Positions 27,001-39,000 are shown, counted from the first letter of the stretch. The stretch is DNA of 64,000 bases from an uncultured Spirochaetota bacterium (GCA_963835575.1 CAWIGG010000002.1:1344001-1408000), one strand, 5' to 3'. A program made the numbers.

Positions 27001-30000
27001 CCGACGGAAAAGCCGCTATGACCGTTATGGGAGACTGGGCTGAAGGCTACTTTAAATCCAAAGGCCTCAACCCTGATGTGGACTTCGGCTGGGCTCCTTC
27101 TCCCGGCACAAAAGGATCCTATGATATGCTGTCCGATTCTTTCGGCCTTCCCAAGGGCGCTCCCCACAGGGATAACGCCATTAAATGGCTGACAGTCTGC
27201 GCTTCCAAAGATGGTCAGGACGCATTCAATCCCAAGAAAGGGTCCATCCCCAGCAGAATGGATGGAGATAAGAGCCTTTATGACAAATATCTCCAGTCTT
27301 CAATGGCCGATTTCGCAAATAACAATATCGTACCGAGTTGTGCTCATGGCGCTGCCGCAGCTGAAAGCTGGGTAACGATGATAAACGATGTGATGACTCT
27401 GCTCGTTACAGAAAAGAATGTTGATAAGGCTGTTGAAGGTTTTGTCAACGCGGCCAAGAAATCTCTAAAGTAAGTCAGTATAGACAAACAGCGGACATTT
27501 ATGCGATGTCCGCTGTTTTTTTTAAAATCAAAATATTATATACAGGCAGCTGATTATGTTCCGTTCAAAAAAAGAATTCTATACCGCTTTTTTTACCCTT
27601 CTTCCTTCCGTGGTTACGCTTCTTGTCTTTGTTTACGGGTTTATTCTATGGACGATACGGGTTTCTTTTTCAAAATGGGTGGGTGTTGAACCAAATTTTA
27701 CATTTAACGGTTTATCCAATTACATTGATATTTTTTCAAGCCGCAGGTTCCAGATCGACCTCTGGAACACCTTCTATTTTACCCTCTTTTTTCTGCTTGT
27801 CTGCGTTTTCGCAGGATTGATGCTGGCTATTTTCTTAGACAGGAAATTAAAGGGCGAGAGTATCTTCAGGAATATTTTCCTCTTTCCGATGGCTTTATCT
27901 TTTGTAGTGACAGGCATAGTCTGGAAATGGATTTTCACACCCTCCACAGGTATAAATTTACTGTTAACTAACATAGGTCTTTCAAAACTGACCTGGGGAT
28001 GGTTTACTCAGCCTTTTCAATTTCTCCACTTTCATGTAGCCCTTATCCCGGTGATCATAGCCGCTTCATGGCAATTAACCGGATATACAATGGCCATGTA
28101 TCTTGCCGGCCTGACGGGAATCCCGCTTGAACTTAAGGAAGCGGCGCGTATAGATGGAGCGTCGGAGTTTAAGATGTACCGTTATGTCATTATTCCCATG
28201 CTCCGCCCGATCACTCTGAGCGTATTGATCGTTCTGGGCCATATTTCACTCAAAATATTCGACCTTGTTTACACAATGACCGGTTCCGGTCCCGCTTTTG
28301 CCACGGATGTGCCGGGTATCAATATGTTTGAAATAACCTTCAGGGGAAACCGCTACGGAGAAGGCGCGGCAATCGCCGTCATTATGTTTATTATGGTCGC
28401 GGTAATAATAGTTCCCTATCTCTATAACAGCCTGAAAAAGGAGAAAAGTAAATGAAACCGAAAGGCTATGAGGCTAAAAAGATTATCTCCCGGGCTATTC
28501 TTTATATGATTTTGACATTAGCGGCTCTTTATTTTCTGCTCCCGATTTATGTGCTTCTGGTTACAGGTTTGAAAAGTTTTAAGGAAGTCAATCTCATGAC
28601 GATGTGGTCTCTTCCAAAGGAAATTACCATAGATTCATTCGTCAAAGCCCTGGAAAAACTGGCCCCCAACCTGATGAACAGCTTCTACCTGACAATACCG
28701 GCAACAATTATCTCGGCATTCATCGGCTCCGTTAACGGCTATATACTTTCAAAGTGGAAGTTCAGGGGCGCGGATATCATTTTCCCTTTTATCCTCTTTG
28801 GAATGTTCATACCTTACCAGAGCATCCTGATCCCGCTGGTCCAGTTCCTCAGAATGATCCATCTTTACGGGACGATCCCTGGTCTTATCCTGACCCATGT
28901 CATCTACGGCATACCGATTACCACGCTGATTTTCAGGAATTATTTCGCCGAGGTCCCGAATGAACTGATTGAAGCGAGCATGATTGACGGCTGCGGTATG
29001 TACGGGGTCTTTTTTAAGATCCTGCTGCCGATTTCCGCGCCCGGTTTCGTTGTCGTCATCATCTGGCAGTTTACAAACATATGGAACGAGTTTCTATTCG
29101 CAGTCACCATCACTCCCAACCAGAGCCTTCAGCCTATTACTGTGGCCCTGCAGAACCTGGCCGGAAGCCAGATCGTGGAATGGAACGTTCAGATGGCCGG
29201 GGCTTTGATAGCAGCTCTTCCCACATTGATCATTTATATCGTCCTGGGCAAGTTTTTCATTAGAGGGCTCCTGGCGGGCTCGGTCAAAGCTTAATACTTC
29301 TTTTTTTGACAATTATTGAAACGAAGAGTAAAGTATAACCGATATGGAATTTAATAATATTATCAGTTGATTATAAAAAATCCTTTCGTTTTTTTACGGA
29401 TTTTTGTTCTTTTTCCAAGAAAAAAAGTTTCGTTTTTTTAGTAATTTAAGGTGTCTATATATTATGAATAAAAAGAAGGGGGCTTTTTAGTTCATGATAA
29501 GGAACTGAACATGAAAGATTTTAATTTGATCAAGGATGATTTTTACAAAAACAATTTGTTTAAAAATATTTCCAAACAGAAGGAAATACCGGTCCTCATC
29601 CTTTTTAAACACAAACAGTACAATGCAAGGATGCTCTTTGATTATAAAAAGGGAAACAATCCTTATTTAAACAGCAATAGTGAAATAATCCCGTTTTCAA
29701 ACGGTGAAAAAATACAAATATCGTTTTTTTATAAAGACATCTTTTTTACTTTTGAGACAGCTATTATTGATTCATCCGAAAGCACTTATCATATTCAGAT
29801 GCCTTCCATGATCCATACTTCATCTAAAAGAATGATCAGCCGCTATACATTCGATGAAACTGTAAATAATTCTGTTTCTTTTCCAAACCGTCCTGAATTA
29901 TTCAAGTTAATTGATATCAGTACCGGCGGTATTTCCTTTATTTCAGAGGAAAAATTTCTCCATAAAAATGAAATCGTCAGAAACATATTGATCAAAATAA

Positions 30001-36000: not shown

Positions 36001-39000
36001 CTGATTATAATCAAATCGGCGGAAAAATAGATATTGTTTTTCATACTGCGGCCTTAGTCAAGCATTATGGACAATACACGGAATTTGTGAAGGTGAATGT
36101 ATCTGGAACAGAAAATATAGTCCGGTTTTCAAACAATTTCCATAAGAGAATAATTTATATTTCTACAACCAGGGTTTCGGGAACCTTATTAAAGCAGAAA
36201 ACCGATAACCTTCATTTTACAGAAAACGATTTCGACATCGGTCAGAATTATCAAGAAAGTGTTTATGTGAAAAGCAAATTTGAAGCGGAAAAAATAGTTG
36301 CGGATGCTGTACATACCGGCCTGCAGGCTGTTGTTATGAGAGTCGGAAATCTTACAGGCAGATTTTCGGACGGACTATTTCAACAGAATATAAAAGATAA
36401 TATGAATTATAATGTCATAAAATCCATATTGATACTGGGAGCTATCCCTGAAGAATTATCCGGAATTGACATGGAATTCACCCCAGTTGATTTATGCAGC
36501 AAAGCTATATTGAAAATATCAACAATAAAAGAATCTTATGGGAAAAAATACCATATATTCAACCATCATTACATCACAACCATTAATTTCCTGAATATGA
36601 TAAAAGAATTGAATTATAAAGTGAAAATATTAAAAAAAAGTGGCTTTCAAAATTATATCCGCGACCTTTCTCAAACCGGTGATAAAAAGGAAGAAGTCAA
36701 TTACCTGAAAAATGTTTTTGAATATGAAAAATTACTTGACGACCATTATAAAGTGCAAATTGAATCCGGAATCACACAGGAATTCCTGAAAAGAACCGGT
36801 TTTGAATGGCCTGAAGTTAACAGGGATTATATTTTAAAAATCATTCAATATATGCAGAAGACCGGTTTTTTAAAACCATGAGTTTTTAGATATGAATTTG
36901 TTTTACAAACTCTTCTGACGGTATTTTTTTCTCAAAACCAAATCCTGCCGAAATTTCGCTCAAAAGAGAAGCCGCTTCCTGAGCCGAGCCTTTTTTTAAA
37001 AGATTGAGAGTAAGTTTATGCCTTAAACGGAAAATTGCTTTAAGTTTGGAATCTCCCAGACTGATATTGAAATAAGCATTTTCATTTGAATAAGCATAGG
37101 GAATCTCGGTGACCATTTCAAAAAGCTTATAGCAATATTCCAGGGCCTTTTTGGAATTCATTGAATAGTGAGACCAATTTTCCATAATACCCTCGATTTT
37201 CCATTTCAATCGGTATTCGGGTAATGAAAGTTCGCTGACAGGTGAAATAATTAATGGGAAAAGAATATAATTTGTCATCCTGGTTTCTAGGCTGTTCAGA
37301 AATAATGCCGTATTTTTAATTGTAGCCTCATTCTCACCCGGAAATCCGACAATCAATGATAGAAATACGGCAATATTGGCTTTATCCAGAAGCTCAATCC
37401 CCGTTTTTGCGGCTGAAAGGTCCAGTTTTTTATTCATTCTCTCAAGCTGGGATTGGTCTCCGGATTCAAGCCCTATCCATGAAGTCATTAAACCGGATTC
37501 TTTTATCAGATCAATGTTATCACTGTTAATTGATGCCGCCCGCATAAATCCCGACCACATAATGGAGCATTTCAAGTCGATAAAAGCCCCGCAAAGCTCT
37601 TTAGTTCGCTGTTGATTGTATAAACAATTGTCGTCTGTCAGATATAATATATTGGGTTTATTATTTAAATTATTCCTGTTTTTTATCAGTTCAATTTCCT
37701 TTTTTATGCTTTCAACCGACCTTAAAAACAGCTTCGGATACAGGAACCAGAAGTCGCAGAACTTGCATCTATATGGACAACCGATGGAAGTGCGGATGGG
37801 AACTTTGAGCGGAAGATTTTCAACCAGGTCCCACCGTGTAATATCCTCATTATAGTCTACAGTTTCGTTTTCATGCTTTGTAAAAAAAAATATTCCGCTT
37901 TTATCCGGAATTGCAATATTAGGTATATCTGCATACTTCGCTTTTTTTCCTTTATTAAATTCATCCAGCAGGGGAAACAAACTGGAACTGCCATGAGGAG
38001 AAACAATGAGAATATCTGCGGGAATTTCATTTTTGTCGCATGGAAAAAGGACATAATTTTTGTTTTCATCAGACCAATTATTTATTTCGTCAGAGGACTG
38101 AAATTCCCCGTATATGCAGTAGCTTTTCCATAAAAATATACCGCCGATTATTATAAACACATCCGGAAGAGTTTTTCTAACATCTTTGACTAATTCAGAA
38201 AGCGTATCTTTTCTTCTTAATCATGGTCGTTGAAATGCAGCTACAGCCGCCCCTTTTTTTTGCAGTTGTTCCAGAGATTCTTTTTCAGTGTCAGACAATA
38301 GCATAGTGTCATATCCGTGTGAATGAAGGAGCCCTTCCAGATAATAGCCGGCAGAAGGGACTGTTTCCTGAAGGGTGATAAGTCTCTGAGCAGGTATTTT
38401 ATATAAGTCATATGAGTTTTTGCATAGATTAAAAAGAAGCCGGATGCTCAGTTCATCCTGATTGATCTTCGGATTAAATTCCAGATTTATATTATTCATT
38501 TTCGGATCAGAAACAGGAGCGATAATACCTATGATATTCGGCATAATGATATTTTTCCTAATCTATATTAAAAACCATATAAGGCTAAGATCACTTTTTT
38601 AAAAATAATTAATCTTTACTATTGACATTATATTAAAAATTTATTTTTTTAGCAAAAATACCATACGTTTTTTAAACAAATTTAAAATAATTATTAAAAT
38701 CTCTAAAACCCTTGTGTTTTTTCTTGAAATGATTATAATCAATAATGGCTTTAATAAAAGATCATACCATTATTAATTTTTTTATTAGTTAATAATATTT
38801 TCCGATAAATACACTCAAATTTAAATATACAGGTATTTATGGAGAAAGTATTAAATTATACTCTTATCAAACAAATCGGCGAAACCAGTAAATCAACAAT
38901 TTATAAAGCAAAAAAAGATAGTGAAGACAAAACCGTTATCATCAAATCCTTGAATATCAGTTATCCTTCAGCTTCTGAAATAGCCCGGTTCAAGCAGGAA

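Follow-up and report, generated by a model that had tools for sequence, protein, structure and literature searches.

The window, a 64-kb stretch of DNA from an uncultured Spirochaetota bacterium, holds the gene of a one-module nonribosomal peptide synthetase (NRPS) with an unusual N-terminal extension. ORF and Pfam analysis bear out the earlier note, which had described a real 2456-aa gene with PilZ, Condensation, AMP-binding, PP-binding and NAD_binding_4 domains; its parts list is right save for an epimerisation (E) domain that it had taken for a second condensation (C) domain. The reading frame starts with ATG, and an AAGGAA-like ribosome-binding site lies 5' of the gene. No riboswitch was found in the intergenic region 5' of the gene, since no Rfam family reaches its gathering score there. 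The features are as follows.

29306..29334, plus strand: promoter-like site, TTGACA-17-TAAAGT (10 of 12 consensus matches; consensus match alone)
29511..36881, plus strand: whole gene, 2456 aa, [PilZN-PilZ-tandem GNAT]-C-A-T-E-R (ORF, Pfam, NCBIfam, solved relatives)
29511..29822, plus strand: PilZN (YcgR-N-like) barrel, aa 1-104 (structural and profile alignment to MrkH)
29823..30140, plus strand: PilZ beta-barrel, aa 105-210 (PF07238; Alg44 PilZ structure)
29829..29843, plus strand: RxxxR motif, R107-M-I-S-R111 (translation, alignment)
29913..29930, plus strand: DxSxxG motif, D135-I-S-T-G-G140 (translation, alignment)
30141..31145, plus strand: predicted tandem GNAT-fold region, aa 211-545 (Foldseek, VIA-align)
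31155..32474, plus strand: first condensation domain (C1), starter position, HHLIADAW (Pfam Condensation, aa 549-988)
32532..34061, plus strand: adenylation (A) domain, 10-residue code DGTITAEVVK (Pfam AMP-binding, aa 1008-1387, and AMP-binding_C, aa 1444-1517)
34149..34322, plus strand: carrier (T) domain, GGDS (Pfam PP-binding, aa 1547-1604)
34377..35711, plus strand: E domain, aa 1623-2067, HHLVVDGVSW and EGHGRE (solved relatives)
35763..36872, plus strand: thioester reductase (R) domain, aa 2085-2454, GSTGLLG and YVKSK (TIGR01746, NAD_binding_4)

Structural modeling predicts that the first 548 residues form a YcgR/MrkH-type PilZN-PilZ receptor for c-di-GMP, followed by a tandem GNAT fold. 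Both folds had been proposed from a poorer model, and both are reproduced by Foldseek and VIA-align with the present, much better AlphaFold model of this N-terminal module (pLDDT 88.9, pTM 0.88). Foldseek finds c-di-GMP-bound PP4397 (3kyf, 2.7e-12), MrkH (5kgo, 4.5e-12) and YcgR (5y6f, 3.7e-11), all of which align full-length to the model (217-230 columns), and VIA-align places the same three proteins on model residues 1-220 with Z 13.0-13.2. The PilZ domain of Alg44 with c-di-GMP (4rt0) likewise aligns over 101 residues (Z 12.3, rmsd 2.1). PF07238 recognises the PilZ domain at aa 130-207 (32.4 bits against a cut-off of 22.5, E 1.2e-7) and does so in 26 of the 33 members of our family alignment A1 (E<=0.1), while the Pfam PilZNR match to the PilZN barrel is weak (14.6 bits against a cut-off of 23, E 0.037). 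A profile of the family matches MrkH (E 1e-9, positions 8-179) and MotI (1e-4), and the RxxxR and DxSxxG motifs fall in register; R107-MIS-R111, which sits just before the barrel, lines up with the RRxxxR of MrkH.

The RxxxR motif is kept in 24/24 fused, 4/4 mid-length and 29/30 free-standing-size members, counting those with the region present. DxSxxG shows variants across the family, with G140 invariant throughout alignment A1. Only 19 positions are conserved at >=80% in the fused as well as the free-standing group, and R107, R111 and G140 are among them. PF07238, the motifs and the fold match thus agree with the YcgR/MrkH-type PilZN+PilZ with RxxxR and D/NxSxxG described before, and the two motifs are indeed common to the four proteins compared at that time (P0002-P0004 keep both; P0004 has E for D). 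The two-barrel fold, the RxxxR in the linker and the DxSxxG in the barrel are shared with YcgR, MrkH, PP4397 and MotI. However, those are proteins of ~220-250 aa that bind motor or DNA, whereas here the receptor makes up the first 210 aa of an enzyme.

Two tandem GNAT folds are matched over model residues ~210-540 (VipF, 9emp, 5kgh, 7q3a, 2wpw). Foldseek places VipF (6wqb) at 3.2e-10, with further matches to 3n7z, 5kgh, 7q3a and 2wpw, and VIA-align aligns 274 residues with the histidine acetyltransferase 9emp (Z 15.4). In fold, aa 211-545 therefore resemble tandem GNAT enzymes (9emp, VipF 6wqb, the glucosamine N-acetyltransferase 5kgh and the clavulanate-pathway 2wpw; Z 12-15.4, E down to 3.2e-10), but they are only 6-12% identical to them and have neither a GNAT HMM match nor an evident CoA loop. 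None of the 33 members matches a Pfam GNAT family (any Acetyltransf or FeeM) at E<=0.1, an NCBIfam search of the N-terminal module gives no GNAT family, and a Q/RxxGxG/A CoA loop is not seen by eye after strands 288-291 or 463-468 in alignment A1 read with the secondary structure of the model. The GNAT assignment is thus made from the predicted fold alone, and the region may be a pseudo-enzyme. We rejected GNAT loading of the polyketide type, which cannot apply because no carrier domain lies between the GNAT region and C1.

Each of C1, A, T, E and R has preserved all of the catalytic core motifs that we read in it (in C, A and T: HHLIADAW, TSGTTGNPKG, NEYGPTE, SGKIDNK and GGDS), and the frame is uninterrupted. 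The C-A-T-C-R order given by the earlier note is not upheld. A second C domain at aa 1623-2067, where Pfam places another Condensation-family match, is rejected, as the best solved relatives of this stretch are the E domains of TycB (6ta8, 9.9e-125), GrsA (5isw, 6.2e-115) and TycA (2xhg, 6.7e-111); the six best (E 9.9e-125 to 1.9e-110) are all E domains or synthetases that contain one, and they align over ~443 residues, and the HHxxxDG and EGHGRE motifs are visible in the E-domain alignment. The assembly line is therefore C-A-T-E-R. The R domain scores 223.7 bits with TIGR01746 (cut-off 213.35) and matches NAD_binding_4 at aa 2088-2333 (E 6.3e-49). No carrier directly precedes it: T (1547-1604) is followed by E (1623-2067) and then by R (2085-2454), and the gap between E and R is only ~17-20 residues. 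Among the fused members mapped, T-E-R occurs in this protein only, the other R-bearing ones carrying T-R. This unusual release geometry is of interest in its own right; it may stem from a deletion and impair release.

C1 occupies the starter position, Pfam placing no PP-binding domain before aa 1547 and so none ahead of C1. Its best solved matches are mixed (TycC 2jgp, 4.1e-29; 7c1k, 3.4e-24; Txo2, 1.2e-23; surfactin 8f7h, 3.2e-14). The code of the A domain, DGTITAEVVK, is probably tyrosine-type, which would make tyrosine or a closely related aromatic residue the likely substrate. The E domain would invert the selected amino acid, and the R domain would release an N-acyl-D-amino aldehyde or alcohol. 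Among reductase-terminated NRPSs, the best NCBIfam neighbours are MxcG (C-A-T-R) and AusA (A-T-C-A-T-R), at scores far below the equivalog cut-offs of these models (625.9 vs 2300 for MxcG). The gut clostridial C-A-T-R synthetases of peptide aldehydes are further examples of this class. The C-A-T...R logic and the release as aldehyde or alcohol are alike in MxcG, AusA and, as predicted, here; however, neither these two nor the clostridial enzymes have an E domain between T and R. To our knowledge, none of them carries a PilZ-GNAT front end.

An exhaustive HMMER search of 1.84 billion cluster representatives with the N-terminal module as query returned 106 proteins at E<=1e-3, and at the stricter threshold of E<=1e-30 it gave 66 cluster representatives. 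These 66 divide roughly evenly between free-standing proteins of about 545 aa (500-600) and NRPS fusions. The earlier count of only three other proteins with this N-terminus is repeated by a word search among proteins of near length, but the rarity that it implied does not hold, as it is an artefact of the length restriction. The free-standing proteins end exactly where C1 starts in the fusions. In the latter the module is always N-terminal and is directly followed by one conserved type of C1: the C1 of the present protein shares 43-53% identity with C1 in most of the other fusions (32-53% over all of them) but only 19-24% with their downstream C domains. In the tree, a single 34-row clade takes in all 27 fused rows (SH-like support 99). 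Most fused members are N-C-A-T-R or N-(C-A-T)2-R, and their module-1 A codes differ. Judged from these sequences, the fusion is old, its members forming one clade that has a first C domain of its own.

More distant relatives of 680-820 aa (E 6e-14 to 3.6e-4) keep R107, R111, G140, Y285 and R431; unlike the present protein, PilZ-tandem-GNAT proteins of ~690 aa have an extra N-terminal region and no NRPS. In the GNAT half, R283, Y285, T288, R431 and E449 are conserved and the same in free-standing modules, and from the ~690-aa group to the fusions R431 is kept in 13/13, Y285 in 12/13 and E449 in 10/13. These searches define a sizeable protein family, of which we found no description, in which a PilZ receptor is linked to a cryptic tandem GNAT fold. 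As the module also occurs free of any NRPS, in 32 free-standing-size members and in loci without an NRPS, its basic role is independent of NRPSs, and the gating of an NRPS as such is not its main function.

In five of the 11 loci compared, a histidine kinase and a c-di-GMP phosphodiesterase of the REC-HD-GYP type lie next to the module, whether it is fused or free; of the remaining six loci, two stop at a contig edge. The REC-DUF3369-HD-GYP regulator stands beside free-standing modules in L011, L013, L015 and L018 and beside an NRPS-fused one in L016, so that free-standing members sit in two-component/HD-GYP operons. The kinases are membrane types (HisKA_7TM and HAMP). The present gene has no HD-GYP or kinase pair next to it in the 64-kb window, and the nearest DUF3369 match lies ~550 kb away in the same genome. 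That genome has 39 GGDEF and 14 PilZ matches, together with two open frames, 244 and 257 aa long and lying elsewhere, that match the ACPS (phosphopantetheinyl transferase) family.

Taking domain order, motifs, folds, family conservation and gene neighbourhoods as observed, we infer c-di-GMP binding, the role of the GNAT-like domain, the direction of control and the product. c-di-GMP would bind at the PilZN-PilZ junction via R107/R111 and D135/S137/G140 and alter the packing of the two barrels, as in YcgR and MrkH. This change would pass to the directly attached tandem GNAT-fold domain, which may bind or transfer an acyl group and, with the clade-specific starter C1, N-acylate the carrier-bound amino acid, such that the c-di-GMP level would set product output post-translationally. 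In many relatives, the adjacent histidine kinase and REC-HD-GYP phosphodiesterase would set the c-di-GMP level seen by the module. A sensor joined to an acyltransferase-like front unit that also stands free suggests that the signal controls the enzyme directly. We give an even chance to the reading that the chain-initiating end of this NRPS is a c-di-GMP-responsive unit setting product output after translation. The earlier proposal that c-di-GMP acts on the NRPS itself is thus retained in part: the family-wide motifs, the single fused clade with its own C1 and the phosphodiesterase neighbours in 5/11 loci favour it, while it is weakened by the occurrence of the module without an NRPS and by the loss of the extreme rarity once claimed.

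The module could instead be an autonomous c-di-GMP-regulated acyltransferase tethered to the NRPS, which tailors or detoxifies the product or acylates another target and does not gate loading or turnover. The tandem GNATs that it matches in structure are stand-alone enzymes, and modules with R283, Y285, T288, R431 and E449 stand free in loci without an NRPS. A precedent is PixB of Myxococcus xanthus, a PilZ-PilZ-GNAT effector that binds c-di-GMP in vitro and can work through its own acetyltransferase domain, whose activity its authors propose to be boosted by c-di-GMP (PMC8316039). The likeness is one of architecture only, two PilZ-type barrels preceding a GNAT-fold output; PixB carries only one GNAT, which can be recognised from its sequence, has a second motif without Ser and is not fused to an NRPS (PMC8316039), whereas here the GNAT is tandem, cryptic at the sequence level and followed by C-A-T-E-R. 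We regard such an acyltransferase as unlikely, since a tailoring enzyme would need no fixed place beside the starter C domain, yet the module always lies N-terminal, directly before one conserved C1 type, and all fusions belong to a single clade.

It is rather improbable that the PilZ part acts to localise the synthetase or to recruit partners at high c-di-GMP (for example by docking it to the membrane, the motor or a signalling complex) with the GNAT-like part as a non-catalytic scaffold. YcgR-type proteins do act via partner binding and not catalysis, the searches gave neither a CoA-binding signature nor a GNAT HMM match, and membrane kinases neighbour the module in related loci; however, many polar GNAT-half residues are kept from the ~690-aa group to the fusions, resembling an active or ligand site.

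We consider very unlikely a horizontally acquired, partly decayed remnant that lost C-A-T between E and R and so has no product release and a PilZ module without consequence: the matches of this protein (P0001) to the N-C-A-T-E protein of G027 (39% identity over aa 1-2058) and of its R domain to that of the second G027 protein (C-A-T-R, 44%) fit such a loss, GC content is low around the gene (0.35-0.39 vs 0.40-0.49 in adjacent blocks), synteny with two congeners stops at ~29.3 kb, and this is the sole NRPS of its genome, with the module in only 5/401 genomes sampled in the phylum, but the 7.4-kb frame and all catalytic motifs that we read in it are intact, and the arrangement is old, as identity to the two-gene form is only 39-44%, so that decay should show by now were the gene unused.

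A putative direct control of chain initiation by c-di-GMP is our best reading. More tentatively, and with some doubt, we propose that PilZN-PilZ-tandem-GNAT is a c-di-GMP-switched initiation module, in which binding of c-di-GMP would itself switch the initiating acyl transfer on or off. Ancestrally it would complete a self-contained circuit that runs from a membrane histidine kinase through a REC-HD-GYP phosphodiesterase and the local c-di-GMP pool to the NRPS, whose small N-acyl amino aldehyde or alcohol product may itself signal. PilZ-gated enzymes are known in cellulose synthase BcsA and alginate Alg44, where post-translational control by c-di-GMP comes from a PilZ domain that belongs to the enzyme's own polypeptide or complex. 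In these, as here, PilZ is tied to a biosynthetic enzyme; they are, however, polysaccharide synthases with a single PilZ, in contrast to an NRPS with PilZN-PilZ. The NRPS fusion is the new part, and our literature search found no paper on a PilZ-NRPS fusion. As far as that search reaches, descriptions of how c-di-GMP controls secondary metabolites concern transcription only (for example PMC6988422).

A receptor within the synthetase would be a different and faster layer of control than transcription. If true, no NRPS gated by a second messenger would have come before it, its switch could be carried over to other assembly lines, and a co-expressed cyclase or phosphodiesterase would offer a handle to switch on silent NRPSs of this clade.

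The gene under study is an uninterrupted frame (29511-36881, +) that begins with ATG behind a purine-rich ribosome-binding site and encodes a protein of 2456 aa (P0001). No riboswitch reaches the Rfam gathering score in the window, and the 216-bp spacer 5' of the gene matches no Rfam family at that score. The promoter-like site and the Pfam domains are as follows.

29306-29334: promoter-like site upstream of the P0001 gene
aa 130-207: PilZ (32.4 bits against a cut-off of 22.5)
aa 549-988: Condensation, the first condensation domain (C1)
aa 1008-1387: AMP-binding
aa 1444-1517: AMP-binding_C
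aa 1547-1604: PP-binding
aa ~1623-2067: second stretch of the Condensation family
aa 2088-2333: NAD_binding_4

The translation carries HHLIADAW in C1; TSGTTGNPKG, NEYGPTE and SGKIDNK in the adenylation (A) domain; GGDS in the carrier (T) domain; HHLVVDGVSW and EGHGRE in the second condensation-like domain; and GSTGLLG and YVKSK in the thioester reductase (R) domain, which also exceeds the cut-off of TIGR01746 (223.7 vs 213.35 bits).

An AlphaFold model of the N-terminal 548 aa (the N-module), built from a 33-row alignment (A1), reaches a mean pLDDT of 88.9 and a pTM of 0.88. It bears out the fold that the earlier note had proposed from a model with a pLDDT of 66, a PilZN-PilZ receptor followed by tandem GNAT domains. 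Residues 1 to ~215 resemble c-di-GMP-bound PP4397 (3kyf, 2.7e-12), MrkH (5kgo, 4.5e-12) and YcgR (5y6f, 3.7e-11) in Foldseek, as well as VCA0042 and MotI. VIA-align returns MrkH (Z 13.2, 205 residues, rmsd 3.5), YcgR (Z 13.0) and the PilZ domain of Alg44 (Z 12.3, rmsd 2.1) for the same residues. A single-sequence phmmer search of aa 1-548 against PDB sequences gave nothing meaningful; matches came with the family profile (MrkH, 1e-9; MotI, 1e-4), with RxxxR and DxSxxG in register.

Residues ~210-540 adopt the tandem GNAT fold (Foldseek: VipF 6wqb, 3.2e-10, then 3n7z, 5kgh, 7q3a and 2wpw; VIA-align: histidine acetyltransferase 9emp, Z 15.4, 274 residues aligned). None of the 33 members of A1 matches a GNAT sequence family at E<=0.1, NCBIfam assigns no family to the N-module and 7 relatives, no canonical CoA loop is seen by eye in the GNAT-like half, and FeeM does not figure in the VIA-align list of 50 entries. 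The nearest ESM Atlas clusters are unnamed or PilZ-only. Clusters combining PilZ with a FeeM-type N-acyl amino acid synthase (PF21926) appear there with low scores, only at 0.80-0.82; we take them as a lead, not as evidence, towards c-di-GMP receptors fused to other amino-acid N-acyltransferases.

The receptor motifs are kept across the family. RxxxR is intact in 24 of 24 long members (two further long members lack the region and are outside this count), in all 4 mid-length members and in 29 of the 30 members of free-standing size that have the region, P0055 being the exception. The second motif reads DxSxxG in 19 long members, ExSxxG in 2, DxNxxG in 2 and DxGxxG in 1; among the free-standing forms it is DxSxxG (16), NxSxxG (4), DxNxxG (4), DxTxxG (2), NxTxxG (3) or NxHxxG (1). 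A comparison of 28 fused with 32 free-standing members (numbered up to P0074) leaves only 19 of the first 544 N-module positions that are conserved to >=80% on both sides. R107, R111 and G140 are among them, as are R283, Y285, T288, F289, Y330, R431, E449, R525 and G532 of the GNAT-like half. R431 extends to 13/13, Y285 to 12/13 and E449 to 10/13 members of a more distant group. This polar core, common to fused and free forms, argues that the molecular function is identical in both and that a ligand-binding or active site truly exists in the GNAT-like half. As a less likely rival explanation, the N-module may be an autonomous acyltransferase that is simply tethered to the synthetase; the free-standing forms and the conserved residues they share with the fusions speak for it, the single clade of the fusions and the conserved C1 directly behind the module against it. 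A predicted complex of aa 1-548 with C1 (aa 549-990) scores 0.01 against a mark of 0.32, a value that is neither support nor counter-evidence for contact between the two.

The N-module is far more widespread than the earlier note had stated. Its count of three other proteins was returned again when the near-length word search was repeated (among 3811 candidates), whereas HMMER against 1.84 billion cluster representatives uncovers a large family: 106 proteins pass E<=1e-3, of which 81 also pass <=1e-10 and 66 pass <=1e-30. Sorted by length, members P0001-P0067 (the 66 representatives plus P0004 from the word search) comprise 26 of >=1400 aa, 4 of 601-1399 aa that are mostly NRPSs truncated at contig ends, 30 of 495-600 aa and 7 shorter fragments. 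In alignment A1, the C-terminus of the free-standing proteins coincides exactly with the start of C1 in the fused ones. Among the fused architectures are N-C-A-T-R, N-(C-A-T)2-R and N-(C-A-T)3-R, where N denotes the N-module, and further N-C-A-T-TE, N-(C-A-T)2-TE and N-C-A-T-E. The distant group, of 680-820 aa, gives weaker matches (E 6e-14 to 3.6e-4) and has an extra N-terminal region.

We placed 72 N-modules in a FastTree phylogeny (27 fused, 32 of free-standing size, 4 mid-length and 9 distant); fragments <480 aa were excluded, as were 4 rows of the 13 in the distant group. In this tree, which carries long-branch warnings and only a midpoint root, all 27 fused rows fall into one 34-row group (SH-like support 99) that is embedded in free-standing lineages. 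The group also holds 4 rows of free-standing size, including P0023, whose locus has no NRPS within 10 kb; the NRPS was therefore likely lost secondarily at least once inside the fused clade. C1 of P0001 is 43-53% identical to C1 of most fused members (full range 32-53%) and 19-24% identical to their downstream C domains. A role of the N-module in localisation or scaffolding is a second, still less probable rival explanation; it would fit the missing GNAT family match and CoA loop, while the conserved polar residues of the GNAT-like half speak against it.

The adenylation domains vary in specificity. Module-1 specificity codes were read at positions mapped from the core motifs, and this mapping is supported by the textbook-looking codes that come out for other members: DAWFLGNVVK in five, DAWTIAAICK in two and the near-identical DAWTVAAICK in one, DVWHFSLVDK in two, DILQxGxxWK in three, and DLTKIGEVGK, DGFFLGVVFK, DAFWLGGTFK and DVQFIAHVVK once each. 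The codes show that the predicted module-1 substrate varies across fused members. P0001 itself has DGTITAEVVK, one residue off a tyrosine code, DGTITAEVAK. Its A domain also contains, between the first and second aligned blocks, a stretch of ~65 residues (aa ~1108-1176, window ~32832-33038) that is unaligned to all five linear gramicidin synthase (LgrA) chains with alignments shown.

A related-locus search with a 12-row alignment (A2) yielded 11 loci from Bacillota, Clostridia and Eubacteriales MAGs, one Nitrospiraceae (two copies) and one Brevinematales MAG. L019, identical in gene and coordinates to G027:C34 of a genome from the same family, is counted once.

L011, L013, L018: free-standing module, then histidine kinase, then REC-DUF3369-HD-GYP regulator; in L013 additionally a class I methyltransferase directly upstream
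L015: free-standing module with a REC-DUF3369-HD-GYP regulator directly upstream
L016: NRPS-fused module, then HisKA_7TM kinase (split frame), then REC-DUF3369-HD-GYP regulator
L012, L014: contig stops right after the module gene
L009, L010, L019: other kinases and regulators
L017 (locus of P0023): none of these neighbours

The HD-GYP regulator thus adjoins the module in 5 of the 11 loci. These five (L011, L013, L015, L016 and L018) share a recurrent operon of the free or fused module, a membrane histidine kinase (HAMP or HisKA_7TM) and the REC-DUF3369-HD-GYP regulator. In the window itself the P0001 gene has different neighbours, described below; a single good DUF3369 match exists in its genome, ~550 kb from the gene. 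Components of c-di-GMP signalling abound in this genome (39 matches to GGDEF, 14 to PilZ). One GGDEF domain lies near the window end (63238-63636, +, within a 1215-aa frame) and another ~600 bases ahead of the window start on the contig. P0001 is the sole NRPS of the genome, both Condensation matches being inside its gene; elsewhere there are 2 matches to the ACPS (phosphopantetheinyl transferase) family, whose open frames are 244 and 257 aa long.

The second condensation-like domain had been taken for a condensation domain in the earlier note. Its best relatives of solved structure are instead epimerization (E) domains (TycB 6ta8, 9.9e-125; GrsA 5isw, 6.2e-115; TycA 2xhg, 6.7e-111; ~443 residues aligned each), and the line is consequently C-A-T-E-R. 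C1 matches ordinary and starter C domains of solved structure, only at 4e-29 or weaker. Between E and R of P0001 lie ~17-20 residues without a carrier domain. When the P0001 domains were mapped by BLAST onto other long members, the order T-E-R was found in none; mapped members with an R domain show T-R, and in P0018 and P0044 E is the last domain. G027 encodes a two-gene form, N-C-A-T-E (2055 aa) and C-A-T-R (1467 aa). This NRPS (G027:C26, 68-15264) sits between two IS200/Y1-type transposase genes, which suggests that the cluster is mobile; a PIN-domain gene lies alongside. P0001 aligns to both G027 proteins, over aa 1-2058 to the first (39% identity) and through its R domain to the R domain of the second (44% identity), and its T-E-R order therefore looks like the product of a C-A-T segment loss. 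With divergence from the G027 form at 39-44% identity, this putative loss would be an old event. That the gene is a decayed remnant, the weakest rival explanation, could draw on such a loss; the frame is nevertheless intact, with its motifs legible throughout.

Upstream of the gene in the window lies an ABC sugar-uptake operon, and synteny with two congeners (G021, G020) stops at its end, at ~29.3 kb; the next ~19 kb in these genomes have no match to the window at E<=1e-20. GC content is 0.35-0.39 over 30-44 kb of the window compared with 0.40-0.49 in adjacent blocks. Of 43 genomes of the class, 4 carry the module at E<=1e-10 (one through a PilZ-only match); across the phylum it turns up at E<=1e-30 in 5 genomes out of 401 sampled. 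A third congener (G022) encodes a distinct member with the order N-C1-A-T-R; it is 30-45% identical and truncated by a contig end. The patchy distribution and the mostly Bacillota relatives fit horizontal acquisition of the P0001 gene.

The low-GC stretch also holds a 1718-aa signalling protein (38839-43995, +) with Ser/Thr kinase, AAA_16 ATPase, TPR, GAF and SpoIIE/PP2C phosphatase domains. At its high-coordinate edge are group II intron RNA pieces (44003-44750, -; RF02001 142 bits, RF01998 66 bits, RF00029 49.7 bits); no reverse transcriptase/maturase is evident in this region, whose only ORF (44038-44436, 132 aa) is without a Pfam match. A beta-propeller protein (44936-47185) has no match in four congeners. 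Convergent with the P0001 gene, with 4 bp between the stop codons, is a radical SAM gene (36886-38160, -, 424 aa), whose best NCBIfam match is the PhpK-type B12 radical SAM P-methyltransferase (190 bits against a cut-off of 600); a 107-aa ORF without family lies upstream of it, the pair spanning 36886-38544 (-). We rejected this gene as a conserved partner: it bears only generic likeness to a B12/radical SAM gene of L009 (24% over 126 aa, E 2e-5) and is absent from the other related loci. Elsewhere in the window (18741-23017, +), two large ORFs with BcrAD/BadFG-type activase ATPase domains (719 aa) and DUF2229 (747 aa) share 127 bases; a wrongly placed start, or one gene split by a frameshift, could explain the overlap.

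No account of a fusion between PilZ and an NRPS emerged from a literature search that had most subscription journals outside its scope. For the pairing of receptor and output, the nearest precedent in print is PixB of M. xanthus (PMC8316039). In sum, the motifs, the fold, the family-wide conservation and the HD-GYP neighbours make it quite probable that the PilZN-PilZ part binds c-di-GMP. That this binding controls the assembly line is about as likely as not; it is suggested by the fixed order of receptor, GNAT and C1, by a fusion that arose once and by a C1 conserved along with it. Control would most likely act at chain initiation: C1, with no carrier domain upstream, depends on an acyl donor that is soluble or delivered in trans, and the GNAT-like domain beside it has an acyl-CoA-binding fold. 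There, the GNAT-like domain might hand over the donor, acylate, or merely transmit a conformational change.
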